A stretch of DNA of 41,884 bases from an uncultured bacterium. GTDB lineage: Bacteria; Abyssobacteria; SURF-5. The stretch lies in contig CAZEBC010000007.1 in the NCBI GenBank assembly GCA_964510165.1, positions 1 through 41,884 on the forward strand, written 5' to 3'. The notes below the pieces were generated by a model. That model was given only the letters and a program-made list of their open reading frames with translations. It did no database searches and was not told the origin of the DNA. Below are positions 10,524 through 28,079 of this stretch, one piece after another (within the stretch, counting starts at the first letter, position 1; each line of letters opens with the position of its first letter). Position numbers and translations under genes: made by a program.

Positions 10524-11102
10524 TCAGGGAATTCGGACGATGCCTGTGAATGTGGGACCTGAGTGGCCGAGTTGTATTCTTATGCGAGCGCCGTCGGACA
10601 GGCCGGGTGGCAGGGTGATCGTAAGGCTTTTTATTTGCCGGATGACACCGGCGCCTCGGCATGAAGGGCAGGCGGCAAAGAAGAGCAGGCCGACCCCGTC
10701 GCAGCGTGGACAGGCGGTATTGACGGGCAGGTCGAGGGTGAATGAGGTTCCGAGGGCCGCTTCTCTTGGGGAGACCGAGATTTCGAAGTCTGGTTCCTGG
10801 GGGGACAGGGTAAACCACGAAGAGGAGAACCAAGGGCGGGCGAGCCGTGAGCGGCGGTAGGGAGGTGACTGACGGGTCCGGCGCTGAGTGTCGTCCTGTT
10901 TGCGAGTGTCCGGGCCGCCAAGCCGTTCATAGGCCTCTCGAATCTCCCTGAATCTTTCACAAGATTCCTCGCCTCTTTCCGCGCAGTCCGGGTGATACTT
11001 TTTGGCCAGCCGTCGGAAGGCATCCCTGACGGCCTTCTGGTCAGCGTTGTTTTGAAGGCCCAGTATCTTGAGGTATTTTTGCCGATTTTGGCGGGTCATC
11101 AT
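10524..11102 (-). CDS. Short DnaJ-domain protein with a single Zn-finger unit
   Basis: J-domain (YLKILGL...AFRRLAKKYHPD...EAYERL), two CxxCxGxG repeats and a partial C-terminal domain (LPPGLSDG). The start overlaps the activator stop. Confidence 0.85.
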   Translation of the reverse strand: MMTRQNRQKYLKILGLQNNADQKAVRDAFRRLAKKYHPDCAERGEESCERFREIREAYERLGGPDTRKQDDTQRRTRQSPPYRRSRLARPWFSSSWFTLSPQEPDFEISVSPREAALGTSFTLDLPVNTACPRCDGVGLLFFAACPSCRGAGVIRQIKSLTITLPPGLSDGARIRIQLGHSGPTFTGIVRIP

Positions 11103-12460
11103 CGTAGTCTAAGTTCTTTGAGTTTCTTGGAGAAGTTGCCCTCATCCATGCCCAGCTTTTGCGCCGCTTCCCGATTGGAGGAGGATTCGCTCAGGGTCTT
11201 AGCGATGAGGTCGCGCTCGAACATGCGTTCAGCTTCCTTAAGGGTCATTCCTGTATAATCTTGCATTGCGGGGGCGGCGGCTCGCAAGTCTTCGTTTTTT
11301 TGGAGCAGGTCCGCGGTGATGACGTCAGTGACACGTACGGCCGCCCATTGGATGACGTTTCTCAATTGGCGGACGTTACCCGGCCACGGGTGTGACGCCA
11401 GCAGTTCGAGGGCTTTGTCGTCGATGGCGACGGGTTTCTTGTGCAGTTCCAAACAGGCTCTGGAGAGCAGGTATTCCGCGAGGGGCTTAATGTCCTCCTT
11501 GTGTTCCCTGAGCGGGGGACAGGTTATCTTGTAGGTGAGCCGATACCTGACGTCCTCCCTGAACTCGCCTTTCTTGATCATTGAGTCCATGTCTCGGTTG
11601 GTGGCGGCGACGACGCGCACGTTCACCTTTATTTCCTTTTGTCCGCCGACCCGCATAACTGTTTTGTCCTCGAGCACCCTCAGCAGTTTCGCCTGCGCTT
11701 CGTAGCTGAGGTCACCGATCTCGTCGAGAAAGAGGGTGCCCCCGTTGGCGAGTTCGAATTTTCCTTTACGCTGGTCCACCTGGGTGGCCACTCGCTTTTC
11801 GATTCCGAACAGTTCGGATTCGAGGAGAGAGGAGGTAAGGGCGCTGCAGTTGACGGGCACGAAGGGGGCGTTGCGGCGATGGCTGTTTCGGTGGATGTTG
11901 TGGGCCGCGAGTTCCTTTCCCGTGCCGCTCTCTCCGCAGATGAGGACGGTGTAGTCGCTTGGGCCGATGAGACGTATTTCCTCCCGGAGCTTTTGCATTG
12001 CCGGGCTGTCGCCGATCATGCGATACTTCTCATCCATCTCCTGAGTGAGGAGTTCTCTTTCCTGTCGGCGCGAGAGCAGGTTATGGATGACGATGGGCAG
12101 GCGGGGCGGCACCTTCCATTTGTTAGCCCCATCCTCGCGCACCTTTTTGATTATGTCGTAGGCGCCATGGCTGACGGCTTGAACGGCCATCTCGAGGGAA
12201 GCCCCTTCGCTCAGGACGACGATATCGAGTCCCGGGAACTCACCCCGGAGAGAATTGAGGACTTCGAGTCCGATCTCTCGCTCGAGCACCCAATCGAGGA
12301 ACACGATGTCGTAGGCGGTGCGTTTCAGGAGGCGGGTCGCTTCGAGGCGGTCGTACGCGACGGTGACCTCGAATCCTTCCTCTTTGAGATAGTTGACGAT
12401 TTCCTGTACGGTTTCCAGTTCATCGTCAACTATGAGAATCTTGCTGCCTTTGACGGACAC
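11099..12460 (-). CDS. NtrC-family sigma54-dependent response regulator (REC-AAA+-HTH)
   Basis: ILIVDDE, FLDW, GESGTGKE, ESELFG, LFLDEIG, WPGNVRQL and a Fis-type HTH. GTG start at 12460 follows AAAGGA (ORF track starts at 12556). Confidence 0.92.
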   Translation of the reverse strand: MSVKGSKILIVDDELETVQEIVNYLKEEGFEVTVAYDRLEATRLLKRTAYDIVFLDWVLEREIGLEVLNSLRGEFPGLDIVVLSEGASLEMAVQAVSHGAYDIIKKVREDGANKWKVPPRLPIVIHNLLSRRQERELLTQEMDEKYRMIGDSPAMQKLREEIRLIGPSDYTVLICGESGTGKELAAHNIHRNSHRRNAPFVPVNCSALTSSLLESELFGIEKRVATQVDQRKGKFELANGGTLFLDEIGDLSYEAQAKLLRVLEDKTVMRVGGQKEIKVNVRVVAATNRDMDSMIKKGEFREDVRYRLTYKITCPPLREHKEDIKPLAEYLLSRACLELHKKPVAIDDKALELLASHPWPGNVRQLRNVIQWAAVRVTDVITADLLQKNEDLRAAAPAMQDYTGMTLKEAERMFERDLIAKTLSESSSNREAAQKLGMDEGNFSKKLKELRLR

Positions 12461-12566
12461 GTTGTTGTTCCTTTCGAGACTGTCCCGTAATGTGGTTTCC
12501 CCCCCGGAGACGCCCCTACAATTTTCTCGCGGGCGGGGCGGGGGGCGTGAGAGCACCCTGCGGGTA

Positions 12567-14561
12567 TCAGGCGTTCTGGGCCAGATACCAGTAGGCCTCG
12601 ACGGTGCCTATCGCCGCGCCCAACTCCTCTTGGGTGAAATCCTTTCGCAGATAGCGGTCGAGGCTGATGCCCTCGTACTTTGCCATTTCCGATTTTGCAT
12701 CGGCCACGTTCGAGGTAAACGCAATTATCGGGATTCTCGCGGTATCGCCGGTCTTCTTGAGGCGATATGCGAGCGATGATCCCGAGATGGTGTCTTCCAT
12801 ATCCAGGTCAATCAAGATGACGTTGGGGTTGAGCTCGACCACCTTTCGCGTGGCCGTGAGGAATTCATCGAGAACTACCGGATAATAGCCGCTCTTTTTG
12901 CATTCGGAATCCAGACGGGATATGAGCGCCGGGTCCATCGAGAGTATGACGGGCCTGGATTTCAAAAGGGTAAAGCAGAAGGTACTGCCGCGGCCTTTGC
13001 CTTCTGAGTCGGCCCAAATTCTCCCGCCGTGAGCACGTATGAAATCGCGGCATATGGAGAGACCCATTCCGGTGCCGCCTTTGCGGAAGCTGACGTGTGG
13101 TTCAAATATCTTATCGAGGTTTTCATGGGGGATACCTGCGCCGGTATCAGAGACTGAGATGTGTATCTCCTCTGGCGCGTCCTCCGCGGAGATGGTGACG
13201 GCTCCGTCGGGGCAGTGTTGGACGGCGTTAAGGAGGATGTTCATGAGCACTCGCGATGTGGCGTTTGGGTCGCAGCAGACGGTAGGGAGTTTTTCGGGAA
13301 GATTGACCCGTATTGTGACCCGGCTTGCGGCGTTTTGCTCGAGCGACGAGGCGAAGTCGCTGACGTTGGCCCTGATTATTTCAGTGAGATCGCAGTGGCG
13401 CAGTCTGAGGTCAAGGGACTGGGGCCTGAAGGCGCTAACGATGGACTTCACCATGGTTGCGACGGTGTTGTAACAGCCTTCGAGCTTCTCGAGGGATATA
13501 TTGAGGTAGGCGCGCTCTTCCCTGGAATCGGCGCTGGCCGTGTCGAGGGCCTGCCTGATGAATCCCTTCACTTCGCCGAGCATCCCCTTCAGTTCATGGA
13601 TTGTTTGCGAGACTTTCTTGTCTTCGAGTCGTTTTTCAATAGTAACGTCGCGGAGGACCAGGAGCTTGCCGAGCGGGCGTCCGATTTCGGTGGTGACCTC
13701 ATGGGCGCCGGCACGGAAGGTAAGTTGTTCCTGGAACCCGGGCATGGTAGTTACCAATTCTTCGACCTTGGTTTGGTCGGAGTTCAGCAGCCTGTCGAAG
13801 AACTGCCGGTTTTCGGGGTTGGCGACTAGGGAGAGGAGGGTGCGATTTCTGAAGTTTTTGCCTTTGGGCTGTCCCAAAAGTGCACGGGCCGGTTCGTTTG
13901 CGAACACCAGGCGGTTATAATTGTCCACCATGAGAATAGGCTCCAGCGTATTGGCCAAGACAAGTTCCAACTCGCCTTTTGCCGCCTCAATCTGACGAGC
14001 CTGCCATACCATTATGAGGACTCCTATCGCGGTGGCAAGGATTATGCTTCCCACGATAACGGAAAGACGCCGCTGGGACTCAATTTCATAGGCGACCTCG
14101 GGGTCTATGCCAAGATTCAGGGCGATTGGTTGTTGAGGGGAGACGGTGCGAAAGATTTCGAACTTGCCGCTGTCGATCTTGACGGCCATTCCTTTGCTCA
14201 TGAGGTCGGCCCATATATCGGGTTCCGCGCGACCGACAGGTTGGCGGACTCCTTTTTCATCGAACGTGAAAACGGAGCCTTCTTTCAGGTCAACGAATCG
14301 GATATACGAGATATTCTTATTGGCTTTGTTTGATTGAGACATTGTGAAGAGCACTCGGTCCAGGCTTTCGGGAGGGAGTTCGCCGGACTGCAAGGCTGTG
14401 GGGGGCTGGAGGTCGTCCACAATTTGTTTGGCGAGGCGCCCTCTTCCGATGAGGCCGGGGAAGAGTAGGACAATGGCCGCTGCGCAAAGCACAAGAAGGA
14501 CAGTGCCCAACATGACGACCATAAGACGAGAGGGAACAATTTTAGGAGAAGAATACCTCAT
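12567..14561 (-). CDS. Membrane hybrid sensor histidine kinase (2 TM, PAS, HisKA, HATPase, C-terminal receiver)
   Basis: Two TM segments, PAS-like region, H-box HELKG, N-box NILLNA, DTGAGI, GTGMGL and a C-terminal ILIDLDM receiver. The start is 14561 or 14600. Confidence 0.9.
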   Translation of the reverse strand: MRYSSPKIVPSRLMVVMLGTVLLVLCAAAIVLLFPGLIGRGRLAKQIVDDLQPPTALQSGELPPESLDRVLFTMSQSNKANKNISYIRFVDLKEGSVFTFDEKGVRQPVGRAEPDIWADLMSKGMAVKIDSGKFEIFRTVSPQQPIALNLGIDPEVAYEIESQRRLSVIVGSIILATAIGVLIMVWQARQIEAAKGELELVLANTLEPILMVDNYNRLVFANEPARALLGQPKGKNFRNRTLLSLVANPENRQFFDRLLNSDQTKVEELVTTMPGFQEQLTFRAGAHEVTTEIGRPLGKLLVLRDVTIEKRLEDKKVSQTIHELKGMLGEVKGFIRQALDTASADSREERAYLNISLEKLEGCYNTVATMVKSIVSAFRPQSLDLRLRHCDLTEIIRANVSDFASSLEQNAASRVTIRVNLPEKLPTVCCDPNATSRVLMNILLNAVQHCPDGAVTISAEDAPEEIHISVSDTGAGIPHENLDKIFEPHVSFRKGGTGMGLSICRDFIRAHGGRIWADSEGKGRGSTFCFTLLKSRPVILSMDPALISRLDSECKKSGYYPVVLDEFLTATRKVVELNPNVILIDLDMEDTISGSSLAYRLKKTGDTARIPIIAFTSNVADAKSEMAKYEGISLDRYLRKDFTQEELGAAIGTVEAYWYLAQNA

Positions 14562-14620
14562 GTTCGGTCGCCATTTTAGGTCGGAAAAGACGTGCGTCAC
14601 GTAATGTTTCAGACAGTGTA

Positions 14621-14732: not shown

Positions 14733-16046
14733 ATGAAAGAATTCAAGGGAGCAAACAAGAAACTGGCTGACCTTTTGGTTCGCGAAGAGATTGTCACCCG
14801 TCAGCAGATAGAAGAAGCGTTGCGCGAGAAAGATGCGCTAAACCAGTTTCTTGGGGAAATACTGGTCCGTCTGTGCTATATCAGCGAGGACGAGCTTATC
14901 GGTTTTCTGGTTCGCCAATGCCGGATTCCGCATTTGAAATTATCAAACTTGCAGGTGGCCACCGAGGCGGCCGGCCTGATTGCCTCGGACATATGCAGGG
15001 AGCACAAGCTGCTTCCGATAGACAAGCTGGGGACGCTTCTTACGGTTGCGATGGTTAATCCGCTCGACACCGAAGGTCTGGAGAGGGTGAAACAGACGGT
15101 GAAACTGCGGATAAAGCCTATCCTGTGTAGTTGGGCCGACTTCAAGGAACTCTATGCGAAGATTTATGGCTCCGACGACCACAAGGCCAGGTTCGAGGAA
15201 GAGTTGTTGGGAGAGTTCGATGAGCCTGCCGCACCGGAAGCGATTGCCGGCGCTTCGGCGGCTCCCGAAGAGGACACAGAGGCGACCGCGCGGGCGCCGG
15301 AAAAGCGACGCGGAGATGGTCTGATAGAGAGGTTCACCTTCGACAATTTCGTAGTTGCCGAAGCGAATTCCTTCACGTATGCTCTGTCGCGTTCGGTTGC
15401 GGATTCGCCGGGCTCCGAGTACAATCCGTTCTTCATTTATGGCAACACCGGTCTGGGCAAGACGCATCTTTCGAACGCGATTGGAAATGAAGTGGTCAAG
15501 CGCGACAGGAAAAAGGCGGTGGTGTATGCGCCGGTGAGTCGCTTCATAGACGAGATGCTGGATGCGGTTGAGGCGGACCAGATGCGGGAGTTTCGCGAGA
15601 AGTACTCCGACGTTGACATTCTGATAATTGACGATGTCCAGTTTCTTGCTGGCAGGGAACGCGCGCAGGAAGAATTCTTCAACATATTCAATCAGATACA
15701 TGGCAAGAAGAAGCAGATAATTCTGGTGAGTGACGTTGCCCCGAAGAACCTGGAGGGTCTCGAGAGACGCCTGATATCGAGATTTGAGGGCGGGGTAGTG
15801 GCTTGTCTGGAGGAGCCCGACCTTCACACACGATTGACCATCCTGAGACGAAGGACGGAAGAGGCGGGCGCCGTCGTGAGCGAAGAGGTGCTCAAGCTGT
15901 TGGCCGAGTCTGTGACGGCGAATGTCCGGGAGTTGGAGGGGGCGTTAAAGAAGCTGCTGGCCTACTCGTCTCTGGTGGGGCACGAGATAACCGTTGAGCT
16001 TGCGCAGGAGATACTGAAACACCTGTTCAAAGGGAACCGGGCATAA
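14733..16046 (+). CDS. Fusion protein: PilB/GspE N-terminal (MshEN-like) domain + DnaA-type AAA+ domain III, lacking DnaA domains I and IV
   Basis: aa ~9-145 resemble the PilB N-terminus (FLGEILV...LTVAMVNPLD). From aa 196: FTFDNFVV, YNPFFIYGNTGLGKTHL, IIDDVQFLAG, QEEFFNIFN, RLISRF and NVRELEGAL. The stop directly follows domain IIIb. Confidence 0.9.
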   Translation: MKEFKGANKKLADLLVREEIVTRQQIEEALREKDALNQFLGEILVRLCYISEDELIGFLVRQCRIPHLKLSNLQVATEAAGLIASDICREHKLLPIDKLGTLLTVAMVNPLDTEGLERVKQTVKLRIKPILCSWADFKELYAKIYGSDDHKARFEEELLGEFDEPAAPEAIAGASAAPEEDTEATARAPEKRRGDGLIERFTFDNFVVAEANSFTYALSRSVADSPGSEYNPFFIYGNTGLGKTHLSNAIGNEVVKRDRKKAVVYAPVSRFIDEMLDAVEADQMREFREKYSDVDILIIDDVQFLAGRERAQEEFFNIFNQIHGKKKQIILVSDVAPKNLEGLERRLISRFEGGVVACLEEPDLHTRLTILRRRTEEAGAVVSEEVLKLLAESVTANVRELEGALKKLLAYSSLVGHEITVELAQEILKHLFKGNRA

Positions 16047-16067: not shown

Positions 16068-17786
16068 ATGGTCGAGACTCTTAAGAAAAGGTTGGGCGAC
16101 ATACTGCTTGAAGAAAGGCTGCTTACTCCGGACCAGCTACAACAGGCGCTCTATGAGCAGAGGCGCACCGGCCAGCCGCTTGTCGCAATTCTGATCGCTT
16201 TCGGGCTCGTGAGCGAAGAAGATATCGTCATTACTCTCAGCGAACAGTTGGGCATTCCGCATCTTCGGGTGGAGAGCTATGAGATTCCGTCCGAAGTTCT
16301 GGCCGAAGTGCCCGAAGGGATCGCGAGACGCTACCATCTGATGCCGGTCGCAAAGACTGGAAAATCACTCACGGTAGCCATGTCCGACCCTCTGAACATC
16401 GTTGCCATCGATGATGTGCGGATGCTTACCGGCTACGAGATAGAGACGGTGGTCAGTCTCGATTCCGAGATAAAGAAGGCAATCGAAAGGTACTATGGAG
16501 GAAAGGACGTCACGGCACTGGAGGATTATGAAGACATTTTGAGGGACGCCCAGGCGGACGTGGAGACGGTTCATGAAGGCAAGGAAGAGATAGATATCTC
16601 CAGCCTCAAGAAAGAAGTCGAGCAGGCGCCTGTGATCCGGCTGGTCAATCTGATTCTCGTAAACGCCGTCCGGCAGGGCGCCAGCGACATACACATTGAG
16701 CCTTATGAGAGGGAACTCCGCGTTCGTTATCGTATAGACGGGGTCCTGCGAGAGGTTCAGTCTCCGCCGAAGGCTCTGCAAGCTGCGGTTGTCTCGCGTC
16801 TGAAGGTTCTCTCCGAGCTTGACATCGCCGAGCGTCGAGTGCCTCAGGATGGGCGTTTCCGGATAAAGTTCGAGGGACGCGAGATAGATTTTCGGGTGTC
16901 CACGCTTCCCACATACTTTGGAGAGAAAGTGGTGCTTCGCATACTCGACAAGGGGGGACTCCATCTGGACCTTGAGAAACTGGGGTTCGAGAAGCAGCCG
17001 ATCGAGGATTTCCAGGACAGTCTGCGCAGGCCCAACGGCATTATTCTCATCACGGGCCCGACGGGAAGCGGAAAGACAACGACGTTGTACTCTGCGCTTC
17101 ACCAGCTCAATACGATGGATGTCAACATAGTGACGGTCGAGGACCCGGTGGAGTATGAGTTGCACGGAATAAACCAGGTGCAGGCGAAGCCCGAGATAGG
17201 TCTGACCTTTGCCTCGGGATTGAGGTCAATCCTGCGGCAGGACCCTGACATAGTCATGGTCGGCGAAATCCGGGACGAGGAAACAGCGGACATAGCGATT
17301 AAGGCCGCTCTCACGGGCCATCTGGTGTTGAGCACGCTTCATACCAACGACGCGCCGGGCGCCATAACGAGGCTCATCGACATGGGAATGGAGCCGTTCC
17401 TGATCGCTTCGTCACTGCTGATGGCGGCCGCTCAACGGCTGGTCAGGAAGATATGCCCCGATTGCCGTCAGTCCTATCGCGTGCCCGACCAGGTCCTGCA
17501 GCGGGCGCAATTCAAAGTTTCCCCGGGCGAGAAGGTGCCGCTCTTCAAGGGTGGCGGCTGCGCGCGTTGCGGGGAGACGGGATATCGAGGAAGGCTTGCG
17601 CTGCTCGAAGTTCTGCGGATTCGCGAGAACATTCAGGACCTGATCATGGCGCAGGCTCCTTCGGGCGAGATAAAGCGCAAGGCCATCGAGAACGGAATGT
17701 TGACGCTGCGGCAAGTCGCGGTGAACAAGGTTAAGGCGGGTCTGACGACTCTTGAGGAAGCACTTCGCGTTACTGCTCCAGACTGA
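16068..17786 (+). CDS. pilB: Type IV pilus extension ATPase
   Basis: N-terminal MshEN (RLGDILL...Q), ASDIHIEP, PQDGRF, GPTGSGKT, EDPVE, LRQDPD, GHLVLSTLHTND and CPDC/CARC Zn motif. Confidence 0.93.
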   Translation: MVETLKKRLGDILLEERLLTPDQLQQALYEQRRTGQPLVAILIAFGLVSEEDIVITLSEQLGIPHLRVESYEIPSEVLAEVPEGIARRYHLMPVAKTGKSLTVAMSDPLNIVAIDDVRMLTGYEIETVVSLDSEIKKAIERYYGGKDVTALEDYEDILRDAQADVETVHEGKEEIDISSLKKEVEQAPVIRLVNLILVNAVRQGASDIHIEPYERELRVRYRIDGVLREVQSPPKALQAAVVSRLKVLSELDIAERRVPQDGRFRIKFEGREIDFRVSTLPTYFGEKVVLRILDKGGLHLDLEKLGFEKQPIEDFQDSLRRPNGIILITGPTGSGKTTTLYSALHQLNTMDVNIVTVEDPVEYELHGINQVQAKPEIGLTFASGLRSILRQDPDIVMVGEIRDEETADIAIKAALTGHLVLSTLHTNDAPGAITRLIDMGMEPFLIASSLLMAAAQRLVRKICPDCRQSYRVPDQVLQRAQFKVSPGEKVPLFKGGGCARCGETGYRGRLALLEVLRIRENIQDLIMAQAPSGEIKRKAIENGMLTLRQVAVNKVKAGLTTLEEALRVTAPD

Positions 17787-18021: not shown

Positions 18022-19086
18022 ATGATGCAGCTTGAAGAACTTTGTCGGCACATGGTAGAGAACGGAGCTTCCGACCTTCATCTTGCCGTGGGCATCCCCC
18101 CGCAGCTCAGGATCGACGGGGAACTCTATTCGATGGACACGGATGTGCTTACCCCCGAATTGACGAAGTCGCTTGCCTACAGCATTCTGACGGAACAGCA
18201 GATAAAGGAATTCGAGCAAGAGCATGAACTGGACATGTCATTCGGGATCAAGGGATTGAGCCGGTTCCGGGTGAATCTGTTTGTTGATCGCAGCTCGGTA
18301 AGTGCGGCCATTCGAACGATCCCGTACGACGTCATGACCTTTGAGGAACTCGGTCTGCCCAAGTGCGTTCGGGAATTGGCGGAGCGGCCTCAAGGGTTGG
18401 TGCTTGTGTGCGGGCCGACGGGCAGCGGGAAGAGCACCACGCTTGCGGCGCTCATCAACAAGATTAATGTTGAACGTCGCTGTCACGTGGTCACGATAGA
18501 GGACCCGATCGAATATCTGCATCAGCACAAGCAATCCATTGTCAACCAGAGGGAAGTCTATTCAGACACCCACTCTTTCGCTCATGCGCTCAAGCACATC
18601 CTCAGACAAGACCCCGATGTGATAATGATAGGCGAAATGCGGGACCTGGAGACGATCGACGCGGCCATTACCGTTGCGGAGACCGGCCACCTGGTTTTCG
18701 CAACGCTGCACTCAAACGACGCCACCCAGACCATCAATCGTATCGTGGACGTATTTCCGCCCCACCGCCAGACGCAGGTCAGGACTCAGCTTTCGTTCGT
18801 CATAGAAGGAGTAGTGGTTCAGCGGCTGCTGCCGCGCAAGGACATGAACGGCCGGGTGCTCGCGCTTGAGATCATGGTCGCCACCCCTGCGATTCGGAGC
18901 TTGATACGCGAGGAAAAGCTGCACCAGATATACTCCAGCATCAGCACGGGCGGCGCTCTCGGGATGCAGACGATGAACCAGAGCCTCTACAAGCTGTACA
19001 AGAGCGGGCAGATATCGTACGAGCTGGCGCTGGAAAGCAGCTCGAATCAGGAAGACTTGTTGAGACTGATGGGGAAGGGCTTTTGA
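18022..19086 (+). CDS. pilT: Type IV pilus retraction ATPase
   Basis: ASDLHL, GPTGSGKST, EDPIE, LRQDPD, AETGHLVFATLH, AIRSLIRE (AIRNLIRE-like) and GMQT. Confidence 0.96.
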   Translation: MMQLEELCRHMVENGASDLHLAVGIPPQLRIDGELYSMDTDVLTPELTKSLAYSILTEQQIKEFEQEHELDMSFGIKGLSRFRVNLFVDRSSVSAAIRTIPYDVMTFEELGLPKCVRELAERPQGLVLVCGPTGSGKSTTLAALINKINVERRCHVVTIEDPIEYLHQHKQSIVNQREVYSDTHSFAHALKHILRQDPDVIMIGEMRDLETIDAAITVAETGHLVFATLHSNDATQTINRIVDVFPPHRQTQVRTQLSFVIEGVVVQRLLPRKDMNGRVLALEIMVATPAIRSLIREEKLHQIYSSISTGGALGMQTMNQSLYKLYKSGQISYELALESSSNQEDLLRLMGKGF

Positions 19087-19091
19087 GAAAC

Positions 19092-20717
19092 ATGATGAAT
19101 CCCTTCAAAACCGACCAGGAACAGGGCAAGCTGGTGATCAAGCGGTTTGCCCAGGCACGAGCGGCAATCGTTGTGATTGTGGCGCTCGCCTGCAGTGCGG
19201 TCCATTTCAGGAAGGGGATGTCGCTCGACCTCGCCACTGCCTATCTGTACGCGATATTTGCCATCGCGCTGATCGAGTCGCTGGTCGTGGTAATCATAGT
19301 GGCGGGGGGATACGACCCCACGCTTCGGTTCTCGTTTCTCCTGCTCTGCGCCGACCTTGCGCTTATCAGCGCGATTGTGACAATGACGGGAGCGAGCAGG
19401 AGCGTATTTGCTTTCCTATATATCATTGCAATCCTCTCGGCGAGCATCCTTCTTACCTTCAAGTGGACTATTGTCATAACAACCATTTGTTCGATCTTAT
19501 TTGTGGTCGTGACAGTGCTTGAAAACAGCGGGTACGTAAGGGCGGCTTCCGCGTTCCGTTGGACTGAGCCCGCGATGTATCTGAGCGATGTGCTGGCGTA
19601 CTCCGGCATGAAAGTCTTTGCATTCTATCTGACGGCCTTCCTTTCCGGTTGTCTCTCGCGGAGGGTTGGACTGCTGCAGATGTTCCAGCAGAACCTCTTG
19701 GACAACCTTGTCAGCGGGTTCATCACGGTGAATCATGATGGCCGGGTCTCGTTCATGAATCATGCGGCCTCGAATCTGCTGCGGCAATGGGAGAGTCCAG
19801 TCGGCAAACACATCTCGGCGGTGTTTCCGGTGACCGACGCCTACATAAATCCGGTCGAGGAGGCGATATCGAGACGGAAGGAATTCCAGAGCAGACAGAT
19901 CGACGTGATCAGGGGCGACGGCAAGATTATCCCCGTGGGCGTCACGGTCTCGCCGATAAGAAACGGGACGGACAGCCTGATGGGCGCCATTGCGAGCTTC
20001 GTGGACCTGACCGAATACAAGAAGATGGAGGAACGGGTCAGGCGCTCGGACCGACTTGCGGCGGTGGGGGAGATGACTGCGGCCCTCGCACACGAGATAA
20101 GAAACCCGGCGGCCTCGATCAGGGGGTCGGTGCAGGAACTATCCGAGAACCTGAGCTTGGAGGGGACAAACGACCAATTGCTGAGAATAGCGATCAGGGA
20201 GTGCGACAAGCTCAACGGGATAATCTCCGATTTTCTGGCGTTCGTGGGAAACAGGCCTCCGGTCAAGGAACCGTTTGATCTTGACCAGCTTCTGACTGAA
20301 GTGATGCAGGCGGCCGAACAACGCTCGAACAGGAACGACGTTGTGATCCTCAAGGATTGCGCGTCACCTGCGGGGTGTGTCTTGGGCGACCGCGGACAAA
20401 TAAAGGAAGCCGTACTGAATGTCGTGCTGAACAGCGCCGGAGCGGCAAAGACGGGCGGACATGTCAAGATTCAAACGAGCGCAAGCGCTGACTCGCCGGA
20501 TCACATCAGCATTGTCGTTCAGAGCGAAGGCAACGGACTCGCCGGTGCAGACACACGCAGGATGTTCGATCCTTTTTACATGACGAAGCAGCCGGGAGGG
20601 GGCCTCGGCATGGCGATCGCGCACAGGATAGTCGCTTCTCACGGAGGTTCGATGGATGTGGAGAGCGCGCAGGGTATAGGGACAACGGTGACAATAACTC
20701 TACCGAGAGAGGACTGA
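19092..20717 (+). CDS. pilS: PilS-like multi-TM sensor histidine kinase with PAS
   Basis: About 6 TM helices, PAS, RLAAVGEMTAALAHEIRNP and FDPFYMTK..GGGLG; directly upstream of a pilR-like gene. Start between 19083 and 19095. Confidence 0.8.
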   Translation: MMNPFKTDQEQGKLVIKRFAQARAAIVVIVALACSAVHFRKGMSLDLATAYLYAIFAIALIESLVVVIIVAGGYDPTLRFSFLLLCADLALISAIVTMTGASRSVFAFLYIIAILSASILLTFKWTIVITTICSILFVVVTVLENSGYVRAASAFRWTEPAMYLSDVLAYSGMKVFAFYLTAFLSGCLSRRVGLLQMFQQNLLDNLVSGFITVNHDGRVSFMNHAASNLLRQWESPVGKHISAVFPVTDAYINPVEEAISRRKEFQSRQIDVIRGDGKIIPVGVTVSPIRNGTDSLMGAIASFVDLTEYKKMEERVRRSDRLAAVGEMTAALAHEIRNPAASIRGSVQELSENLSLEGTNDQLLRIAIRECDKLNGIISDFLAFVGNRPPVKEPFDLDQLLTEVMQAAEQRSNRNDVVILKDCASPAGCVLGDRGQIKEAVLNVVLNSAGAAKTGGHVKIQTSASADSPDHISIVVQSEGNGLAGADTRRMFDPFYMTKQPGGGLGMAIAHRIVASHGGSMDVESAQGIGTTVTITLPRED

Positions 20718-20726
20718 GAGCGTACG

Positions 20727-22112
20727 ATGGAACGGCATCGCATTCTGATCGTCGAAGATGAACCGAGCATGCGGGAGTTGTTGGCCATAATGCTCGAGAA
20801 ACAGGGGTACGAGGTGGACGGAGTGGAAACCTGTCAGGAAGCCGCCGCCAAGTTGCGAAACGGGCTATGGGACCTGATCATCACCGACCTTTGGCTCCAG
20901 GATGACAGACAGGGCGGCATGCGAGTGCTCAGGGAGGCCCAGGAAGCCGACGGGTTTACGCCGTCCATCGTCATTACGGCTCATAGCTCAGTGGATTCTG
21001 CCGTCGAGGCGATGAAGCTTGGGGCGTACGATTACCTTATCAAGCCATTCAAGAACGACGAGCTCAAGCTGGTGGTGGAGAAGGCGATCGAGAGCAAGAA
21101 ACTCCGGGTCGAAAACCGCACGCTCCGATGCGAACTCAAGAAGATGGGGCGGCTGGATGATCTTGTGGGCAATAGCGCCACCATGCACGCCATGAAGAAT
21201 CTGATTCACAAAGTGGCCTGTCTTTCCAGTACGGTGCTCATACTTGGTGAGAGCGGAACCGGCAAGGAGCTTGTGGCGAAGGCGATCCATAATTGCAGCC
21301 CTCGAAGCGAGAAGCCCTTTGTCGCAATAAACTGCGGAGGCATGCCCGAGAACCTGCTGGAGAGCGAGTTGTTCGGCCATGTAAAGGGCGCGTTCACCGG
21401 CGCTGTCTCCCACAAGGATGGGTTGTTCAAAGTAGCCAACGGCGGCAGCCTATTCCTGGACGAGATCGGCGAGACGAGCATGGCGCTGCAAGTGAAGCTG
21501 CTCCGTGTGCTGGATGAGATGAAGATAAGACCCGTCGGAAGCGCGGCCGATTTTTCCGTTGACGTCCGTCTGATATCGGCGACCAACAAGAACCTTGAGA
21601 CCTTGGTGAACGAGGGAAGATTCCGGGAGGATTTCTATTATCGTCTGAACGTGATTCCCATATACGTGCCTTCGTTAAGGGAACGCCGCGAGGATATCCT
21701 CCTCCTGTCGCGCCATTTTCTCAAGAGATTCTGTGAGCGGGTGGGCAGGCAGATTGCCATCACGCCGGAAGCCGATAAAATGCTGGAGCAATACGCGTGG
21801 CCTGGAAACGTGAGGGAGCTTGAAAACGTCATTGAGAGGGCGGCGGCTTTGTGCAACAACGAGACGATTGCGGTTGAAGACCTGCCCGCCAAACTGTGCA
21901 ACTCTGCGGTCGAAGAGCCCTATGCGTCGGAGTTCAATCCGGATGGCATCGATCTGAACGAGCGTGTCGAGGCGTTCGAGCGTTCACTGATACGACAGGC
22001 AATGAGGAGGTCAGGCAATTCGCAAACGCGGGCGGCCAGGCTGTTGAGGCTTTCGCCACGGTCGCTGAGATACAAGCTTGAGAAATTCAACCTGAAGGGA
22101 AGAGAGAACTAG
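20727..22112 (+). CDS. pilR: PilR-like sigma54-dependent response regulator
   Basis: REC (ILIVEDE, ITD), GESGTGKE, canonical GAFTGA, FLDEIG, WPGNVRELEN and HTH (RSLRYKLEK). Confidence 0.85.
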   Translation: MERHRILIVEDEPSMRELLAIMLEKQGYEVDGVETCQEAAAKLRNGLWDLIITDLWLQDDRQGGMRVLREAQEADGFTPSIVITAHSSVDSAVEAMKLGAYDYLIKPFKNDELKLVVEKAIESKKLRVENRTLRCELKKMGRLDDLVGNSATMHAMKNLIHKVACLSSTVLILGESGTGKELVAKAIHNCSPRSEKPFVAINCGGMPENLLESELFGHVKGAFTGAVSHKDGLFKVANGGSLFLDEIGETSMALQVKLLRVLDEMKIRPVGSAADFSVDVRLISATNKNLETLVNEGRFREDFYYRLNVIPIYVPSLRERREDILLLSRHFLKRFCERVGRQIAITPEADKMLEQYAWPGNVRELENVIERAAALCNNETIAVEDLPAKLCNSAVEEPYASEFNPDGIDLNERVEAFERSLIRQAMRRSGNSQTRAARLLRLSPRSLRYKLEKFNLKGREN

Positions 22113-22139: not shown

Positions 22140-23366
22140 ATGTCAACATTTCAGTACACCGCTCGTGACAAATCGGGCGCCAGCCGTTCCGGTGTGATGG
22201 AGGCCGAAAACAAGCAGGACCTGCTGCAAAAGCTCAGAGGCAAGGGGCTCGTGGCGACAGCCGTTTATGAGGGTGCGGCGCCGGCGGCGTCTCGGGCCAA
22301 GGGCGTCACCGGCACGCGGAAAGGCAAGAAGGTAAAGTCGGAGGAAATGATCCTGTTCACCCGGTCGCTGGCCACGATGGTTAACGCCGGGTTGCCGTTG
22401 CTGCAGGGCATCGACATCATGATCGAACAGACCGAGAATTTGAACTTCAAGCGGGTGCTCACGCAGATCGGGCAGGACATCGAGGCGGGCATGACGTTTT
22501 CGGATGCCTTGAAGAAGCACCCGAGAGTTTTCTCCGATCTGTACTCGAGCATGGTTCGGGCTGGCGAGGCGAGCGGCAATCTGGACGGAATCCTGATACA
22601 GTTGGCCGAGTATCTTGAGGCCACCGAGAAACTGAAGCGCGATATCAAGTCCGCGATGACATATCCGATAATAGCGCTTGTAATCGTGGTCGCCATCGCC
22701 GCCGGGCTGCTTGTGTTCATCGTTCCGAAGTTCCAGGAGATTTTCGAGAGCCTGGGAGGCACACTGCCGGCGCCCACGCTGATGCTCATAAATCTCAGTA
22801 ATTTCGTGCGTAGCTCGATCCTGATCGTGCTCGGGGCCATTTTTGCCGTGGTCGTGGCGTTGCGCTATTACATCAGCACGCCATCGGGCAGATACCAGTT
22901 CGACAGCCTGAGACTCAGATTGCCGGTCTTCGGGCCGCTCTTCCGAAAAGTGGCGGTGTCGCGGTTCGCGCGCACCATGTCCACATTAACCCGAAGCGGA
23001 GTGCCCGTTCTGGGGGCATTGGAGATCGTGGAACGCACTATCGGAAACGAAGTCATCGCGCGGGCCGTGGCTGGTTCCCAATCGAGCATCAAGGCCGGCG
23101 CCACAATAGCCGACCCGCTGGCGCGCAGCGGGGTGTTCCCTCTGATGGTGACGCGGATGATTGACGTGGGCGAGAGGACGGGCTCTCTTGATGAGCTTTT
23201 GACGAAGATATCGGAGTTTTATGACCAACAGGTGGAGGCTGCCATTGCCAGCCTTACATCGCTCATCGAGCCGATGCTCATCCTGTTTCTTGGCGTCGTG
23301 GTCGGCGGGATGGTGCTTGCGTTGTTCCTGCCCATCTTCAAGCTTTCCACGCTGGTAAGCGGCTGA
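22140..23366 (+). CDS. pilC: Type IV pilus platform protein (T2SSF family)
   Basis: FQYTARD, FTRSLATMVNAGLPL, SMVRAGEASG, KSAMTYP, VGERTG, SLIEP and LFLPIF. Confidence 0.95.
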   Translation: MSTFQYTARDKSGASRSGVMEAENKQDLLQKLRGKGLVATAVYEGAAPAASRAKGVTGTRKGKKVKSEEMILFTRSLATMVNAGLPLLQGIDIMIEQTENLNFKRVLTQIGQDIEAGMTFSDALKKHPRVFSDLYSSMVRAGEASGNLDGILIQLAEYLEATEKLKRDIKSAMTYPIIALVIVVAIAAGLLVFIVPKFQEIFESLGGTLPAPTLMLINLSNFVRSSILIVLGAIFAVVVALRYYISTPSGRYQFDSLRLRLPVFGPLFRKVAVSRFARTMSTLTRSGVPVLGALEIVERTIGNEVIARAVAGSQSSIKAGATIADPLARSGVFPLMVTRMIDVGERTGSLDELLTKISEFYDQQVEAAIASLTSLIEPMLILFLGVVVGGMVLALFLPIFKLSTLVSG

Positions 23367-25706: not shown

Positions 25707-28079
25707 ATGAACCTCTCCAAGCTTACATCAAGAGCCGGATGGCTCGCATTTCTTCTTCCCAGTGCCGTCTACGTGTTCACCCTGTGCCCAACCGTTTATT
25801 GGGACGACTCCGGTGAGCTTATAGCTGCCGCATACACTCTCGGCATTCCGCATCCACCCGGGCATCCTCTATACGCGATTCTGGGGAAGCTGTTTACGTT
25901 CATCCCATTTGGCTCAATCGCATGGCGCGTCAACTTCATGTCGGCGTTCTTCGGGGCGCTGGCCTCTCTGCTTGTTTACAGGATAATTGCCGAACTGCTC
26001 GAGGAAAGCTCGGTCAGGCCGCTGGCCGCGCTCTGCGGGGCGCTTTTTTTCGCTTTTGCCCCGACCATGTGGGACCAGGCGACGGTAGCTGAGACCTCGA
26101 CGCTTCATGTGTTCTTCATGATGCTGCTGACTTGGCTCTCTCTTCGCATCACATCACGCAAGACGATTGGGAAGAATGAAACTGGGTGGCTTTGCCTGTT
26201 CAGTTTCCTTTATGGGCTGAGCCTGACCAATCATGTGGCTGGAGTACTATTCATTCCCGCGTTCCTGTACGTCTTCCTTATGGGTTTGGGGAAGCGGCTG
26301 TTCGTGCCGTCGCTGTTGGGCAAGATGTTAGCTGCTTTTTGCGTCGGGCTGACTGTGTATGCGTATCTGCCTATCAGGTCCCTTGCCGACCCTGCAATAG
26401 ACTGGGGCAACCCCGAGACATTTGAGAATTTCCTTTGGGTGATAACCGCCAGGCAGTTTTCGCCAAACATCAGCAAAACCCATAACATCTATGCCATAGC
26501 GGCGCATCTGTATGTCAGGGGAAGAGACCTCTTGGGGGATTTCACGATTTTGGGTTGTGTGTTGGGCCTCATTGGGGCCGTTCAACTCTTCAGAAGACAG
26601 CCCCGATTTCTCGCATTCAGCCTGATTGTTATCGCTGAACTCGTCTATGTTAGCTTCAATCCCGCGTTTATTTCGGCGTATCTGATTCCTGCGATTGCTT
26701 TTCTGGGCGTCTGGATCGGAGCCGGAGTTCACGCGGTGGCTCAGTCTCTGGAAACGATTCCCGCCTTTCCCGGCAGGATTGTGGCGAGACAGACGCTGTG
26801 CACGGCGCTCGCCGTGAGTTTTGTACTGCCTCTGGGCATTCATTTCAGCGACATGGACCGAAGCAACGATCTGTATGCACTGCAATATGGTGAGCAAGTA
26901 ATGGCGGGTTTACCGGAGGGTTCGGCATTCTTCACGACCGATGGATATGCACTGTTTATCCTCTGGTATCTGAAGTATTGCGAGAACAGGCGGGCCGACC
27001 TCATGGTGATAGAGCCGACATGGCTCTCGGCAGACAATCCTTTGCGGGAGCAAACATTGCAGCAATATCCCGATCTGGCGTCTCCTTCGCACGACGTTCT
27101 CGCCAGGTATCTCGCCGGAGTGAACGATCCGGTGTCGAGGCAGTATCTGGGTATTCAGGCGGTGCTCGACGCAAATCACGAGAGCCGCCCCATATACTGG
27201 GGGATAATCCAGCGGGAGCTTCCGTTCGCGAAGCACCTTACGCCGCAGGGAATGTTGCACCGATACTCGGTCAATACCGTGACACTCACCGAAGAAGTGC
27301 TTGCAAAAAACCGCGAGTTCTGGGAGGCGGAAGCGGCGCGGTTCAAGCGCGACCCGGCAATGGCCAAAGACAAACTGGCCCTTGAAATCTATCCGGTCGA
27401 ACTGAACAATCAGGGACTGATGTTTGATGAATTGGGACACGGCGACCTCGCGAGATGGGCGATCGAGCTCGCGCTCGTATTCAATCCTGATTATCCGGTA
27501 AGCAGGTATAACCTTGGCTGGCTCGAGACGCGAGCGGGGCACTACGAGAAAGCCGTTGAGGAATACAAGTTGGCGATAAAGGGGAATCCATATATGGCGG
27601 TGGCTCATTACGAGCTCGGCAAAGCGTATCGCAATCTGGGTCGTTTGGATGAGGCGTTTCTGTCGTTTCGGAAGGCGACCCAAATGCACCCCGACTATTA
27701 CGAGGCCATTACCGCTCTGGGGCAATTGTATGCGCGTGTCGGACAGCATGAGGATGCAGTGGAGAGGTTTGAGAGGGCTCTTTCGATCAATCCCTCGTAT
27801 CCGTTTGCTCTCAGAGGCCTGGCCTCGGCCTATCTCGAACTGGATCGCCTGGTCGAGGCGCGCGACACGCTCGAGCGCGCGCTCCGGTTTGAGCCCGAAT
27901 CGGCGGCGGCGCTGTTTGCCCTCGCGAAATATGGTGTTCGCACGGATGATGAGCGAACTGCCAGAGAGGCGTTAGAAAGGTCGTTGGAAATCGGAGGCGC
28001 TGATTTCCTTGAACAGGCGCTCATGGATAAGGACTTAGAGAAGCTGGCAAGAGAAATCGCCGGAGGCGAGCAAATATGA
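25707..28079 (+). CDS. DUF2723/TMEM260-like GT-C glycosyltransferase with C-terminal TPRs (copy 1)
   Basis: PTVYWDDSGEL, LGIPHPPGHPLY, GLSLTNH, YLPIRS..P.IDWGNP, about 10-11 TM segments and a TPR tail. Confidence 0.88.
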   Translation: MNLSKLTSRAGWLAFLLPSAVYVFTLCPTVYWDDSGELIAAAYTLGIPHPPGHPLYAILGKLFTFIPFGSIAWRVNFMSAFFGALASLLVYRIIAELLEESSVRPLAALCGALFFAFAPTMWDQATVAETSTLHVFFMMLLTWLSLRITSRKTIGKNETGWLCLFSFLYGLSLTNHVAGVLFIPAFLYVFLMGLGKRLFVPSLLGKMLAAFCVGLTVYAYLPIRSLADPAIDWGNPETFENFLWVITARQFSPNISKTHNIYAIAAHLYVRGRDLLGDFTILGCVLGLIGAVQLFRRQPRFLAFSLIVIAELVYVSFNPAFISAYLIPAIAFLGVWIGAGVHAVAQSLETIPAFPGRIVARQTLCTALAVSFVLPLGIHFSDMDRSNDLYALQYGEQVMAGLPEGSAFFTTDGYALFILWYLKYCENRRADLMVIEPTWLSADNPLREQTLQQYPDLASPSHDVLARYLAGVNDPVSRQYLGIQAVLDANHESRPIYWGIIQRELPFAKHLTPQGMLHRYSVNTVTLTEEVLAKNREFWEAEAARFKRDPAMAKDKLALEIYPVELNNQGLMFDELGHGDLARWAIELALVFNPDYPVSRYNLGWLETRAGHYEKAVEEYKLAIKGNPYMAVAHYELGKAYRNLGRLDEAFLSFRKATQMHPDYYEAITALGQLYARVGQHEDAVERFERALSINPSYPFALRGLASAYLELDRLVEARDTLERALRFEPESAAALFALAKYGVRTDDERTAREALERSLEIGGADFLEQALMDKDLEKLAREIAGGEQI

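Follow-up and report, generated by a model that had tools for sequence, protein, structure and literature searches.

The DNA considered here, referred to as the window, is a stretch of 41,884 nucleotides (nt) from an uncultured bacterium of the lineage Abyssobacteria, SURF-5 (positions 1 to 41,884 of contig CAZEBC010000007.1, assembly GCA_964510165.1). On its plus strand at 14733-16046, directly ahead of the pilus gene pilB, lies a gene whose product of 437 amino acids (aa) joins an N-terminal MshEN domain (also called N1D) to a AAA+ domain of the type found in the replication initiator DnaA; gene and protein are both called X below. X is a real, conserved gene that occurs in two little-known bacterial phyla and is built from two known domains. 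Its function is best explained, at a probability of about 0.45, by a role as a cyclic di-GMP (c-di-GMP)-sensing AAA+ protein that serves the motor for type IVa pilus extension as an accessory subunit or a regulator, and regulation of that motor is a more likely role for X than DNA replication. The tie to the motor is drawn because of an invariant gene order, a docking domain of PilB type and a reciprocal decay in PilB itself. An earlier note, made from the sequence alone, had described the same architecture and interpreted it as a mimic of DnaA; the observation was confirmed, and the interpretation was partly supported.

Gene order and half-sites in X and PilB

X heads a pilB-pilT-pilS-pilR-pilC cluster, in line with its place at the head of the pilus operon in the earlier note, and this arrangement is not peculiar to the window. 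The order X-pilB-pilT was found in all nine relatives from the same phylum, and pilS-pilR-pilC continue after pilT in eight of them, the contig of the ninth coming to an end. In a second phylum, which holds a genome titled Candidatus Hydrogenedentota, 19 of 20 fetched loci encode the N-domain, the AAA+ domain and then pilB, with pilT next in 18; the twentieth locus is a paralog without the AAA+ domain. X thus sits directly 5' of pilB, with short spacers, at 28 of 28 family loci outside the window. Within the window the spacer from the X stop codon to the pilB open reading frame (ORF), which begins at 16068, is 21 nt, and no terminator-like site was found between the two genes. Scanning the plus strand ahead of X for sigma-70 promoters gave no candidate site; the scan did not extend to sigma-54 promoters. 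X was never seen beside dnaA or dnaN in the loci examined and was always beside pilB. A separate, full-length dnaA, such as the earlier note had asked to see confirmed, does exist in the genome: it encodes DnaA_N, Bac_DnaA and Bac_DnaA_C and stands next to dnaN on another contig.

A second line of evidence comes from the residues of the c-di-GMP site. Work with MshEN has shown that the substitutions G11L and G40I abolish its stabilisation by c-di-GMP (PMC5013675). These positions, in Vibrio cholerae MshE numbering, were compared in 29 X proteins, the 29 PilBs adjacent to them and 29 control PilBs; the controls were the best PilB orthologs of a phylum in which the search had turned up no X (30 loci, one of which, from an unpublished genome, was dropped). 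At G40, glycine is present in all 29 X proteins and in 28 of the 29 controls, and in none of the 29 X-adjacent PilBs, where alanine (16), valine (8), proline (3), serine (1) and glutamine (1) take its place. The residue at R38 is basic (Lys or Arg) in every control (29/29), in no X protein (28 Phe, 1 Tyr) and in no X-adjacent PilB (10 Pro, 9 Asn, 8 Ser, 1 Leu, 1 Gly). At G11, glycine occurs in 27 of the 29 X proteins (the other two have alanine), in 22 of the 29 adjacent PilBs and in 29 of 29 controls. Judged by these alignments, then, wherever X is present the second half-site of PilB lacks its hallmark residues and X holds the intact glycine. The window conforms to this pattern, in that its PilB has a degenerate second half-site, with Pro at R38 and Val at G40, while five of nine other MshEN-like domains in the same genome keep Gly at G40. 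Reciprocal decay of this kind is hard to explain without a functional link between X and PilB, and the contrast between 0/29 and 28/29 at the key glycine in X-linked and control PilBs makes a direct prediction for work in vitro.

The N-domain of X itself aligns with V. cholerae MshEN without a gap over residues 8-117, X residue n corresponding to V. cholerae residue n-1. It is made up of a four-helix c-di-GMP subdomain (about residues 8-62) and an alpha/beta, N1E-like subdomain (residues 64-149), and both were recognized in family scans: NF053729, the model of the MshE-type c-di-GMP motif, matches residues 11-62 at 46.8 bits (cut-off 38), and PF05157 (MshEN) matches residues 64-149 at 59.9 bits (cut-off 23.1). 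A c-di-GMP site, as envisaged in the earlier note, is plausible. Among 200 members of the family, the glycines at G11 and G40 are both kept in 169, and both glycines together with nine hydrophobic contacts in 149. The window copy has Gly41 at G40, Ala12 at G11 and all nine hydrophobic positions, and its genome gives six GGDEF matches.

The closest solved relatives of this part of X by sequence are Geobacter PilB, Thermus PilF and V. cholerae MshEN. Like the domains of MshE, PilB and PilF (5HTL, 5TSG, 6F8L), that of X has both half-sites and the N1E-like subdomain; unlike them, it is fused to a AAA+ domain instead of a T2SSE ATPase, has Phe for Arg38 and, in the window copy, Ala for Gly11. The T2SSE family (PF00437) has no match in X, and the neighbouring PilB matches it at 483 bits. 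Conservation in X is highest in the alpha/beta subdomain, the counterpart by homology of the N1E domain with which GspE binds GspL. The N1D of X is of the same kind as the c-di-GMP-binding domain of PilB and MshE and as the GspL-docking homologue of type II secretion. Residues identical in at least 95% of the 200 members are L15, G41, L70, P95, D97, G100, L103, T104, A106, M107, P110, K128, P129 and C132. Two cysteines can be mentioned separately: C63 (14919-14921) is invariant in an alignment of 24 sequences and is missing from the neighbouring PilB, and C132 (15126-15128) is the one in the list just given.

Identity values place the N-domain nearer to proteins other than PilB. It is 30% identical to that of PilB and 34% and 32% identical to those of two MshEN-HDOD proteins of the same genome, and a recent duplication of the PilB N-terminus was rejected on these figures. 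The motifs from which the earlier note had drawn a parallel with the N-terminus of PilB are present in X, but X carries no copy of its neighbour's N-terminus. The two MshEN-HDOD proteins, each of about 440 aa, are encoded on contigs C41 (L098:1459-2799, +) and C289 (L108:622-1932, -) and are the nearest paralogs of the N-domain. It is conceivable from this kinship with signalling proteins that X is a general c-di-GMP effector whose AAA+ output acts elsewhere than on the pilus motor or DnaA, its co-transcription with pilB serving co-regulation only. MshEN domains are indeed fused to many outputs (PMC5013675), and the DnaA-type module is also found with tetratricopeptide repeat (TPR), coiled-coil and tandem partners. 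Such a reading is nevertheless unlikely, for it would have to accommodate both the constant X-pilB order with short spacers in two phyla and the reciprocal decay of the PilB half-site.

Under the preferred reading, X would be the c-di-GMP receptor of the pilus system, a task taken over from a PilB whose second half-site has decayed. Its N1D would dock at the motor, with either the N1D ring of PilB or the PilM/PilC platform as its partner. The AAA+ module is pictured as an ATP switch with slow hydrolysis, copies of which would assemble head to tail by way of the arginine finger. Several flexibly tethered N1D would be brought together in this way, and the engagement of PilB would be promoted, held or blocked. 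X would not itself be a replication initiator. The way it might act on PilB recalls how DnaC and Cdc6 manage ring ATPases, which is only an analogy; DnaC and IstB belong to the same AAA+ clade as X, which is much closer to DnaA, and are small ATP switches managing another ATPase or ring. The role proposed for X is also that of FimX and PilZ, PilB cofactors which exert c-di-GMP control in trans as separate c-di-GMP-binding proteins that act on the extension ATPase (PMC11656802). X is unrelated to them in sequence and has a PilB-like N1D and a AAA+ domain instead of EAL/GGDEF or PilZ domains. The same review describes the contact between N1D and PilM as one inferred in the field from GspE-GspL crystal structures. 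A predicted complex of the X N-domain (residues 1-150) with the PilM domain of the host's pilMNOPQ cluster scored 0.00, which speaks neither way on binding.

If this reading is true, X would represent a new class of component in a well-studied nanomachine, in which an initiator-clade AAA+ switch is paired with a secretion-type ATPase and the second-messenger site of the motor has passed to the product of a neighbouring gene. Several points weigh against it. Alanine stands at the G11 position in 9 of the 200 members, including the window copy, whose own c-di-GMP binding is thus less certain, and Phe replaces the stacking Arg38 in 179 of 200. Motif readings can also mislead, as in the GSPII-A domain of PilF, where binding was not regained on restoring the consensus (PMC12002112). 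The half-site pattern comes from two phyla only and may reflect just one or two evolutionary events, and no fusion of X to PilB occurs among the 120 longer relatives listed. Finally, the AAA+ domain is still highly DnaA-like (42-49% identity, compared with 46-63% among DnaAs), which a pilus role does not explain, and the same type of module occurs with TPR, coiled-coil and tandem partners for which no pilus link has been shown.

A conserved two-domain family

The existence of X as a single gene does not depend on one assembly. The stretch that encodes it is present in contigs from the runs of three studies; one contig of 12.8 kb, which may be the source assembly, spans all of it, and the linker is bridged in other runs by contigs measuring 1231, 664 and 280 nt, with no joints or loose ends reported. 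A chimeric assembly at the linker, which the earlier note had raised as a danger, was rejected on this ground.

Nor is the fusion a singleton. In a word-indexed search, 110 of the best 120 relatives have the same two domains as X. An exhaustive HMMER search of 1.84 billion representatives at 50% identity followed, in which the best 150 matches were classified: 98 have MshEN with a single C-terminal DnaA-type AAA+ domain, 29 are tandem pairs of DnaA-type AAA+ domains, 3 have the order MshEN-AAA-long spacer-AAA and 20, mostly ordinary DnaAs, have a single AAA+ domain without MshEN. Family members range from 398 to 1202 aa (median 705), a difference accounted for by a linker of 17-776 aa that varies in both sequence and length. 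In 96 of the 98 X-family representatives at most 30 residues separate the AAA+ domain from the end of the protein, so the absence of DnaA domain IV is a trait of the family. Both domains are under purifying selection, with ratios of nonsynonymous to synonymous substitution (dN/dS) of 0.06-0.10 in each and 0.16-0.43 in the linker, as measured in two congeneric pairs whose dS of 0.9-1.5 is near saturation.

A search of contigs with the full X alignment returned mostly ordinary dnaA among the 80 loci retained, with only L006, L007 and L057 belonging to the family, and orthologs were therefore sought by searching genomes with the N-domain of X. Ten of 11 genomes of the phylum of the window, its own included, have an X ortholog, called at N-domain scores of at least 166 bits (paralogs reach at most 81 bits); the exception is a genome that is 77% complete. 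In the second phylum the N-domain matched in 113 of 121 sampled genomes at E ≤ 1e-25, a count to be taken as a maximum, since paralogs of about 450 aa are matched as well. Frames of that length, similar to the MshEN-HDOD proteins, do score in most second-phylum genomes. No match at this threshold was obtained in 101 genomes of the phylum that holds an Acidobacteriaceae-titled genome or in 61 genomes of the phylum with a Sumerlaeota-titled genome. The nearest named proteins to X are labelled Candidatus Abyssubacteria. Two clusters of the ESM Atlas, of 72 and 56 members, carry both Pfam families in every member and consist mostly of Hydrogenedentota entries called 'hypothetical protein'. Elsewhere the databases name the family 'ATP-binding protein', 'DnaA ATPase domain-containing protein' or 'DnaA/Hda family protein', and some entries are misnamed 'chromosomal replication initiator protein DnaA'.

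Full-text literature searches found no published characterisation, in agreement with the earlier note, and no paper that joins MshEN and DnaA domains or links a DnaA paralog to pili. In the 2024 review of PilB cofactors (PMC11656802), the terms DnaA and AAA+ occur 0 times. The MshEN fusions named in the main text of PMC5013675 are to REC, HD-GYP, CheA, CheX, cyclase and kinase domains and do not include DnaA, and its Supplementary Table 4 or Fig. 3b may include one. On its sequence, X is a new candidate among c-di-GMP receptors and pilus-motor cofactors.

The DnaA-type module

Scans with Pfam and NCBIfam hidden Markov models upheld the architecture as first described, MshEN and Bac_DnaA without Bac_DnaA_C. 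Bac_DnaA (PF00308) matches residues 199-356 at 196.2 bits (cut-off 23), and neither Bac_DnaA_C (PF08299) nor DnaA_N (PF11638) has a match in X. As had been claimed, domain IV is absent: the protein ends three residues past domain IIIb, and pilB follows at its short spacing. The motifs named in the earlier note are likewise all in the translation (CRIPHL, residues 63-68; LTVAMVNPL, 103-111; GNTGLGKT, 237-244; IDDVQ, 299-303; SD, 333-334; RLISRF, 346-351; NVRELEG, 397-403), and alignment to Escherichia coli DnaA places X L276 at V211 and X R310 at R245. The DnaA equivalog TIGR00362 matches the C-terminal two thirds of X with profile positions 83-342 of 437 and scores 326.5 bits, just under its cut-off of 343.9. 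The Hda model TIGR03420 reaches 96.9 bits, below its cut-off of 194.8, and the remaining Hda/HdaA models 18-61 bits against cut-offs of 268-307. The IstB_IS21 family of Pfam scores 36.4 bits, above its own cut-off and far under Bac_DnaA.

An AlphaFold2 model, computed from a family alignment of 24 sequences, has two confident domains (residues 1-149 and 192-434) separated by a linker (150-191) with a predicted local distance difference test score (pLDDT) below 50; the mean pLDDT is 84.9 and the predicted template modelling score (pTM) 0.56. With these linker and pTM values, the placing of the two domains relative to each other is undefined.

Among solved structures, the C-terminal part of X is closest in sequence to domain III of Bacillus subtilis DnaA (8BV3/8BTG), at 230 bits. 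It has the same AAA+ fold and length as this domain and its counterparts in Thermotoga maritima (2Z4R) and Aquifex aeolicus (1L8Q/3R8F), with no insertions or deletions in the initiator-specific region and with Walker A and B, sensors I and II, R281 and the arginine finger kept. It differs from DnaA in lacking domains I, II and IV, in its replacements at Glu204 and Arg227, in falling under the equivalog cut-off and in not lying next to dnaN. Hda and HdaA are alike in being DnaA-related AAA+ proteins with an arginine finger and without a DNA-binding domain, but X has an MshEN domain and no N-terminal clamp-binding motif, and its match to Hda chains in the PDB is 40 bits as against 230 for DnaA. 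The module is far more DnaA-like than the Hda entries.

For DnaA residues V211, R245, R227, L290, R281, R285 and R334 we take the roles to be those given in the DnaA literature. Across the 200 members, the Walker A lysine is kept in 200, the Walker B aspartates in 200 and 199, the sensor I aspartate in 191, the residue at R281 in 182, the arginine finger R285 in 198 and the sensor II R334 in 199; at a level of 90% or more, X and DnaA have in common the arginine finger, R281, the two sensors and another 35 positions. Two residues have been lost, the hydrolysis-promoting Glu204 and the inter-protomer Arg227. Glu204, present in 30 of 31 DnaAs, is kept in 9 of 200 X members, with Ser, Gly or Thr in 179, and Arg227, present in 27 of the 31, is kept in 7; the window copy has Ser269 and Ser292 at the two positions. 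In DnaA, the substitution E204Q lowers ATPase activity (PMC5319796).

The AAA+ domain of X is 41.9% identical to domain III of the host DnaA, 42.6% to that of E. coli and 43-49% to 29 others, while other DnaAs are 46-63% identical to the host protein. Being no closer to the host DnaA than to the rest, X would be an old paralog and no recent copy, and a recent duplication of the host DnaA was rejected. In a FastTree phylogeny of 113 domains, the canonical DnaAs fall together (weak support, 80), apart from the orphan modules, and the host DnaA is sister to a paralog on contig C92 (support 97). Since the X rows are scattered over more than one clan (9 changes), the MshEN-fused forms are assigned neither a common origin nor a root in this tree, which is the comparison with DnaA that the earlier note had called for.

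These similarities underlie the main rival of the motor reading, that X is a DnaA mimic whose domain-IV-less module would enter the oligomers of the true initiator, cap them or speed up their ATP hydrolysis. With c-di-GMP as its gate or the pilus base as its anchor, it would couple surface attachment or pole identity to replication initiation or origin positioning. This alone explains why the module has stayed so DnaA-like, as seen in the equivalog score set against that of Hda, in identities to DnaA domain III little below those among DnaAs, and in the shared arginine finger, R281 and sensors. Moreover, Leu and Arg still stand at V211 and R245 in the window copy, and a complete dnaA is there as a target. 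It was also the proposal of the earlier note. The only consistent genomic partner of X is pilB, with no genomic link to dnaA or the origin; Arg227 and Glu204 are gone from nearly all members; and of the 200 members 95 have Glu at R245 and 54 have Ala or Ser at V211, an erosion found in long-linker members (R245 is variable in the DnaA sample as well). X is no closer to the DnaA of its host than to that of E. coli, it has no Hda-type clamp-binding motif, and the same domain-IV-less module also occurs joined to TPR arrays, to coiled coils or to a second copy of the module. We therefore consider it rather improbable that X acts on the true initiator. If it did, X would be a direct molecular link from c-di-GMP and pilus signalling to the control of replication.

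A broader form of the idea takes in the TPR-, coiled-coil- and tandem-fused relatives, all of which would, like X, be DnaA mimics on adaptor tethers, entering or capping the initiator oligomer at oriC. In X, c-di-GMP and the polar pilus motor would then gate initiation directly or anchor the origin at the piliated pole. This too is unlikely; if true, surface sensing would be physically linked to the cell cycle through a pseudo-initiator. The DnaA ATPase module has, on this evidence, been reused outside replication in several architectures, in phyla with few or no cultured members.

The same residues bear on yet another proposal, in which X handles single-stranded DNA (ssDNA) during pilus-dependent DNA uptake by forming an ATP-dependent filament at the pilus base. 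DnaA domain III binds ssDNA in solved complexes, of which those from B. subtilis and A. aeolicus match X best in sequence; the window copy still has L276, R308 and R310 where E. coli DnaA has V211, K243 and R245; and type IV pili serve natural transformation in some bacteria. These positions are, however, unconserved across the family, and no competence genes were seen beside X in the fetched loci, where only pil genes were searched for. Incoming ssDNA, furthermore, enters through ComEC and not through the pilus motor. A role in DNA uptake is accordingly very unlikely, and regulation of the extension motor is still the preferred reading.

Neighbouring genes and related proteins

The features of X and the genes around it are collected in Table 1. 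In seven of the nine relatives in the phylum, those whose fetched stretch reaches upstream, a hybrid histidine kinase also adjoins X.

Table 1. Features of X and neighbouring genes in the window.
Feature	Position	Strand	Basis or remark
Gene X (MshEN/N1D, linker, DnaA domain III)	14733..16046	+	437 aa, ATG start, intact ORF
MshEN / GSPII (N1D) domain, residues 8-149	14754..15179	+	Pfam, NCBIfam, AlphaFold2 model, alignment to V. cholerae MshEN
Two 24-residue MshE-type c-di-GMP half-sites, residues 10-33 and 39-62	14760..14918	+	Motif as in PMC5013675
Acidic Ala/Pro-rich disordered linker, residues 150-196	15180..15320	+	AlphaFold2 model, family alignment
DnaA-type AAA+ domain III (IIIa and IIIb lid), residues 197-434	15321..16034	+	Ends 3 residues before protein end
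Walker A GNTGLGKT, residues 237-244	15441..15464	+	Lys in 200/200 members
Walker B ILIIDD, residues 296-301	15618..15635	+	Asp in 200/200 and 199/200
Box VII RLISRF, residues 346-351, arginine finger R350 (E. coli R285)	15768..15785	+	R350 in 198/200, R346 in 182/200
Sensor II NVRELEG, residues 397-403, R399 (E. coli R334)	15921..15941	+	199/200
pilB (T2SSE ATPase with its own MshEN domain)	16068..17786	+	Pfam
pilT-like retraction ATPase	18022..19086	+	Translation and conserved place after pilB, without family scan
PilS-like histidine kinase (6TM_PilS, PAS, HisKA, HATPase_c)	19083..20717	+	Family scan
PilR-like response regulator	20727..22112	+	Translation and 34-37% identity to the activator at 11099-12556; unscanned
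pilC-like platform protein	22140..23366	+	Translation and conserved synteny; unscanned
Hybrid histidine kinase (HATPase_c and receiver), divergent from X	12567..14600	-	
Sigma-54-dependent response regulator, downstream of the hybrid kinase	11099..12556	-	

Just downstream of pilC, an epimerase-like ORF and a family-2 glycosyltransferase are followed by three consecutive ORFs of 790, 793 and 796 aa (25707-32848, +), the first of which was scanned and reads as a TMEM260-like protein O-mannosyltransferase with C-terminal TPR repeats. This region could be a glycosylation island for pilin or a surface protein.

Research on the module also turned up a variety of DnaA-type relatives. Contig C99 of the host (L129:4304-9382, +) has an ORF of 1692 aa with a DnaA-type AAA+ domain at each end (Bac_DnaA, two stretches); the part between them, about 1000 residues long, has a high content of E, K, L and Q and looks like a coiled coil. 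Its layout resembles that of SMC or Rad50, but the heads are of initiator type. A related architecture with an additional N-terminal MshEN domain (1867-1999 aa) was found in eight proteins among the longer relatives listed. Tandem DnaA-type AAA+ proteins of 570-700 aa without a DNA-binding domain are represented by P0062, P0065 and 27 other representatives, some labelled Gemmatimonadetes or Gemmatimonadota. Giant TPR-repeat proteins of about 1350-2150 aa (for example L017:5528-10780, +), labelled Sumerlaeota and Hydrogenedentota, end in a domain-IV-less DnaA-type AAA+ domain.

Contig C92 of the host (L130:4495-5538, -) encodes a second DnaA paralog, a protein of 347 aa that is 52% identical to the host DnaA and has domains III and IV but lacks domain I. 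Some 400 nt upstream of its gene are two ORFs in tandem (575 and 597 aa), both with MshEN-like N-termini and Gly at the G40 position, the nearer of which reads as a T2SSE ATPase. In the second phylum, the long linkers of X-family members contain repeated motifs resembling amphipathic helices (of the type xxMRESVxxAMQEAM, alignment columns about 330-600) and a short conserved DERVL just before the AAA+ domain; the short form in the window has neither.

Finally, contig C3 of the host (L142:4524-6188, +) carries an ORF of 554 aa in which PilM is continued by a transmembrane and coiled segment of PilN-like type, followed by PilO-like and PilP-like ORFs and a secretin-like ORF of 841 aa. The PilM-PilN-like fusion frame (568-582 aa) is retained in relatives from the same phylum.

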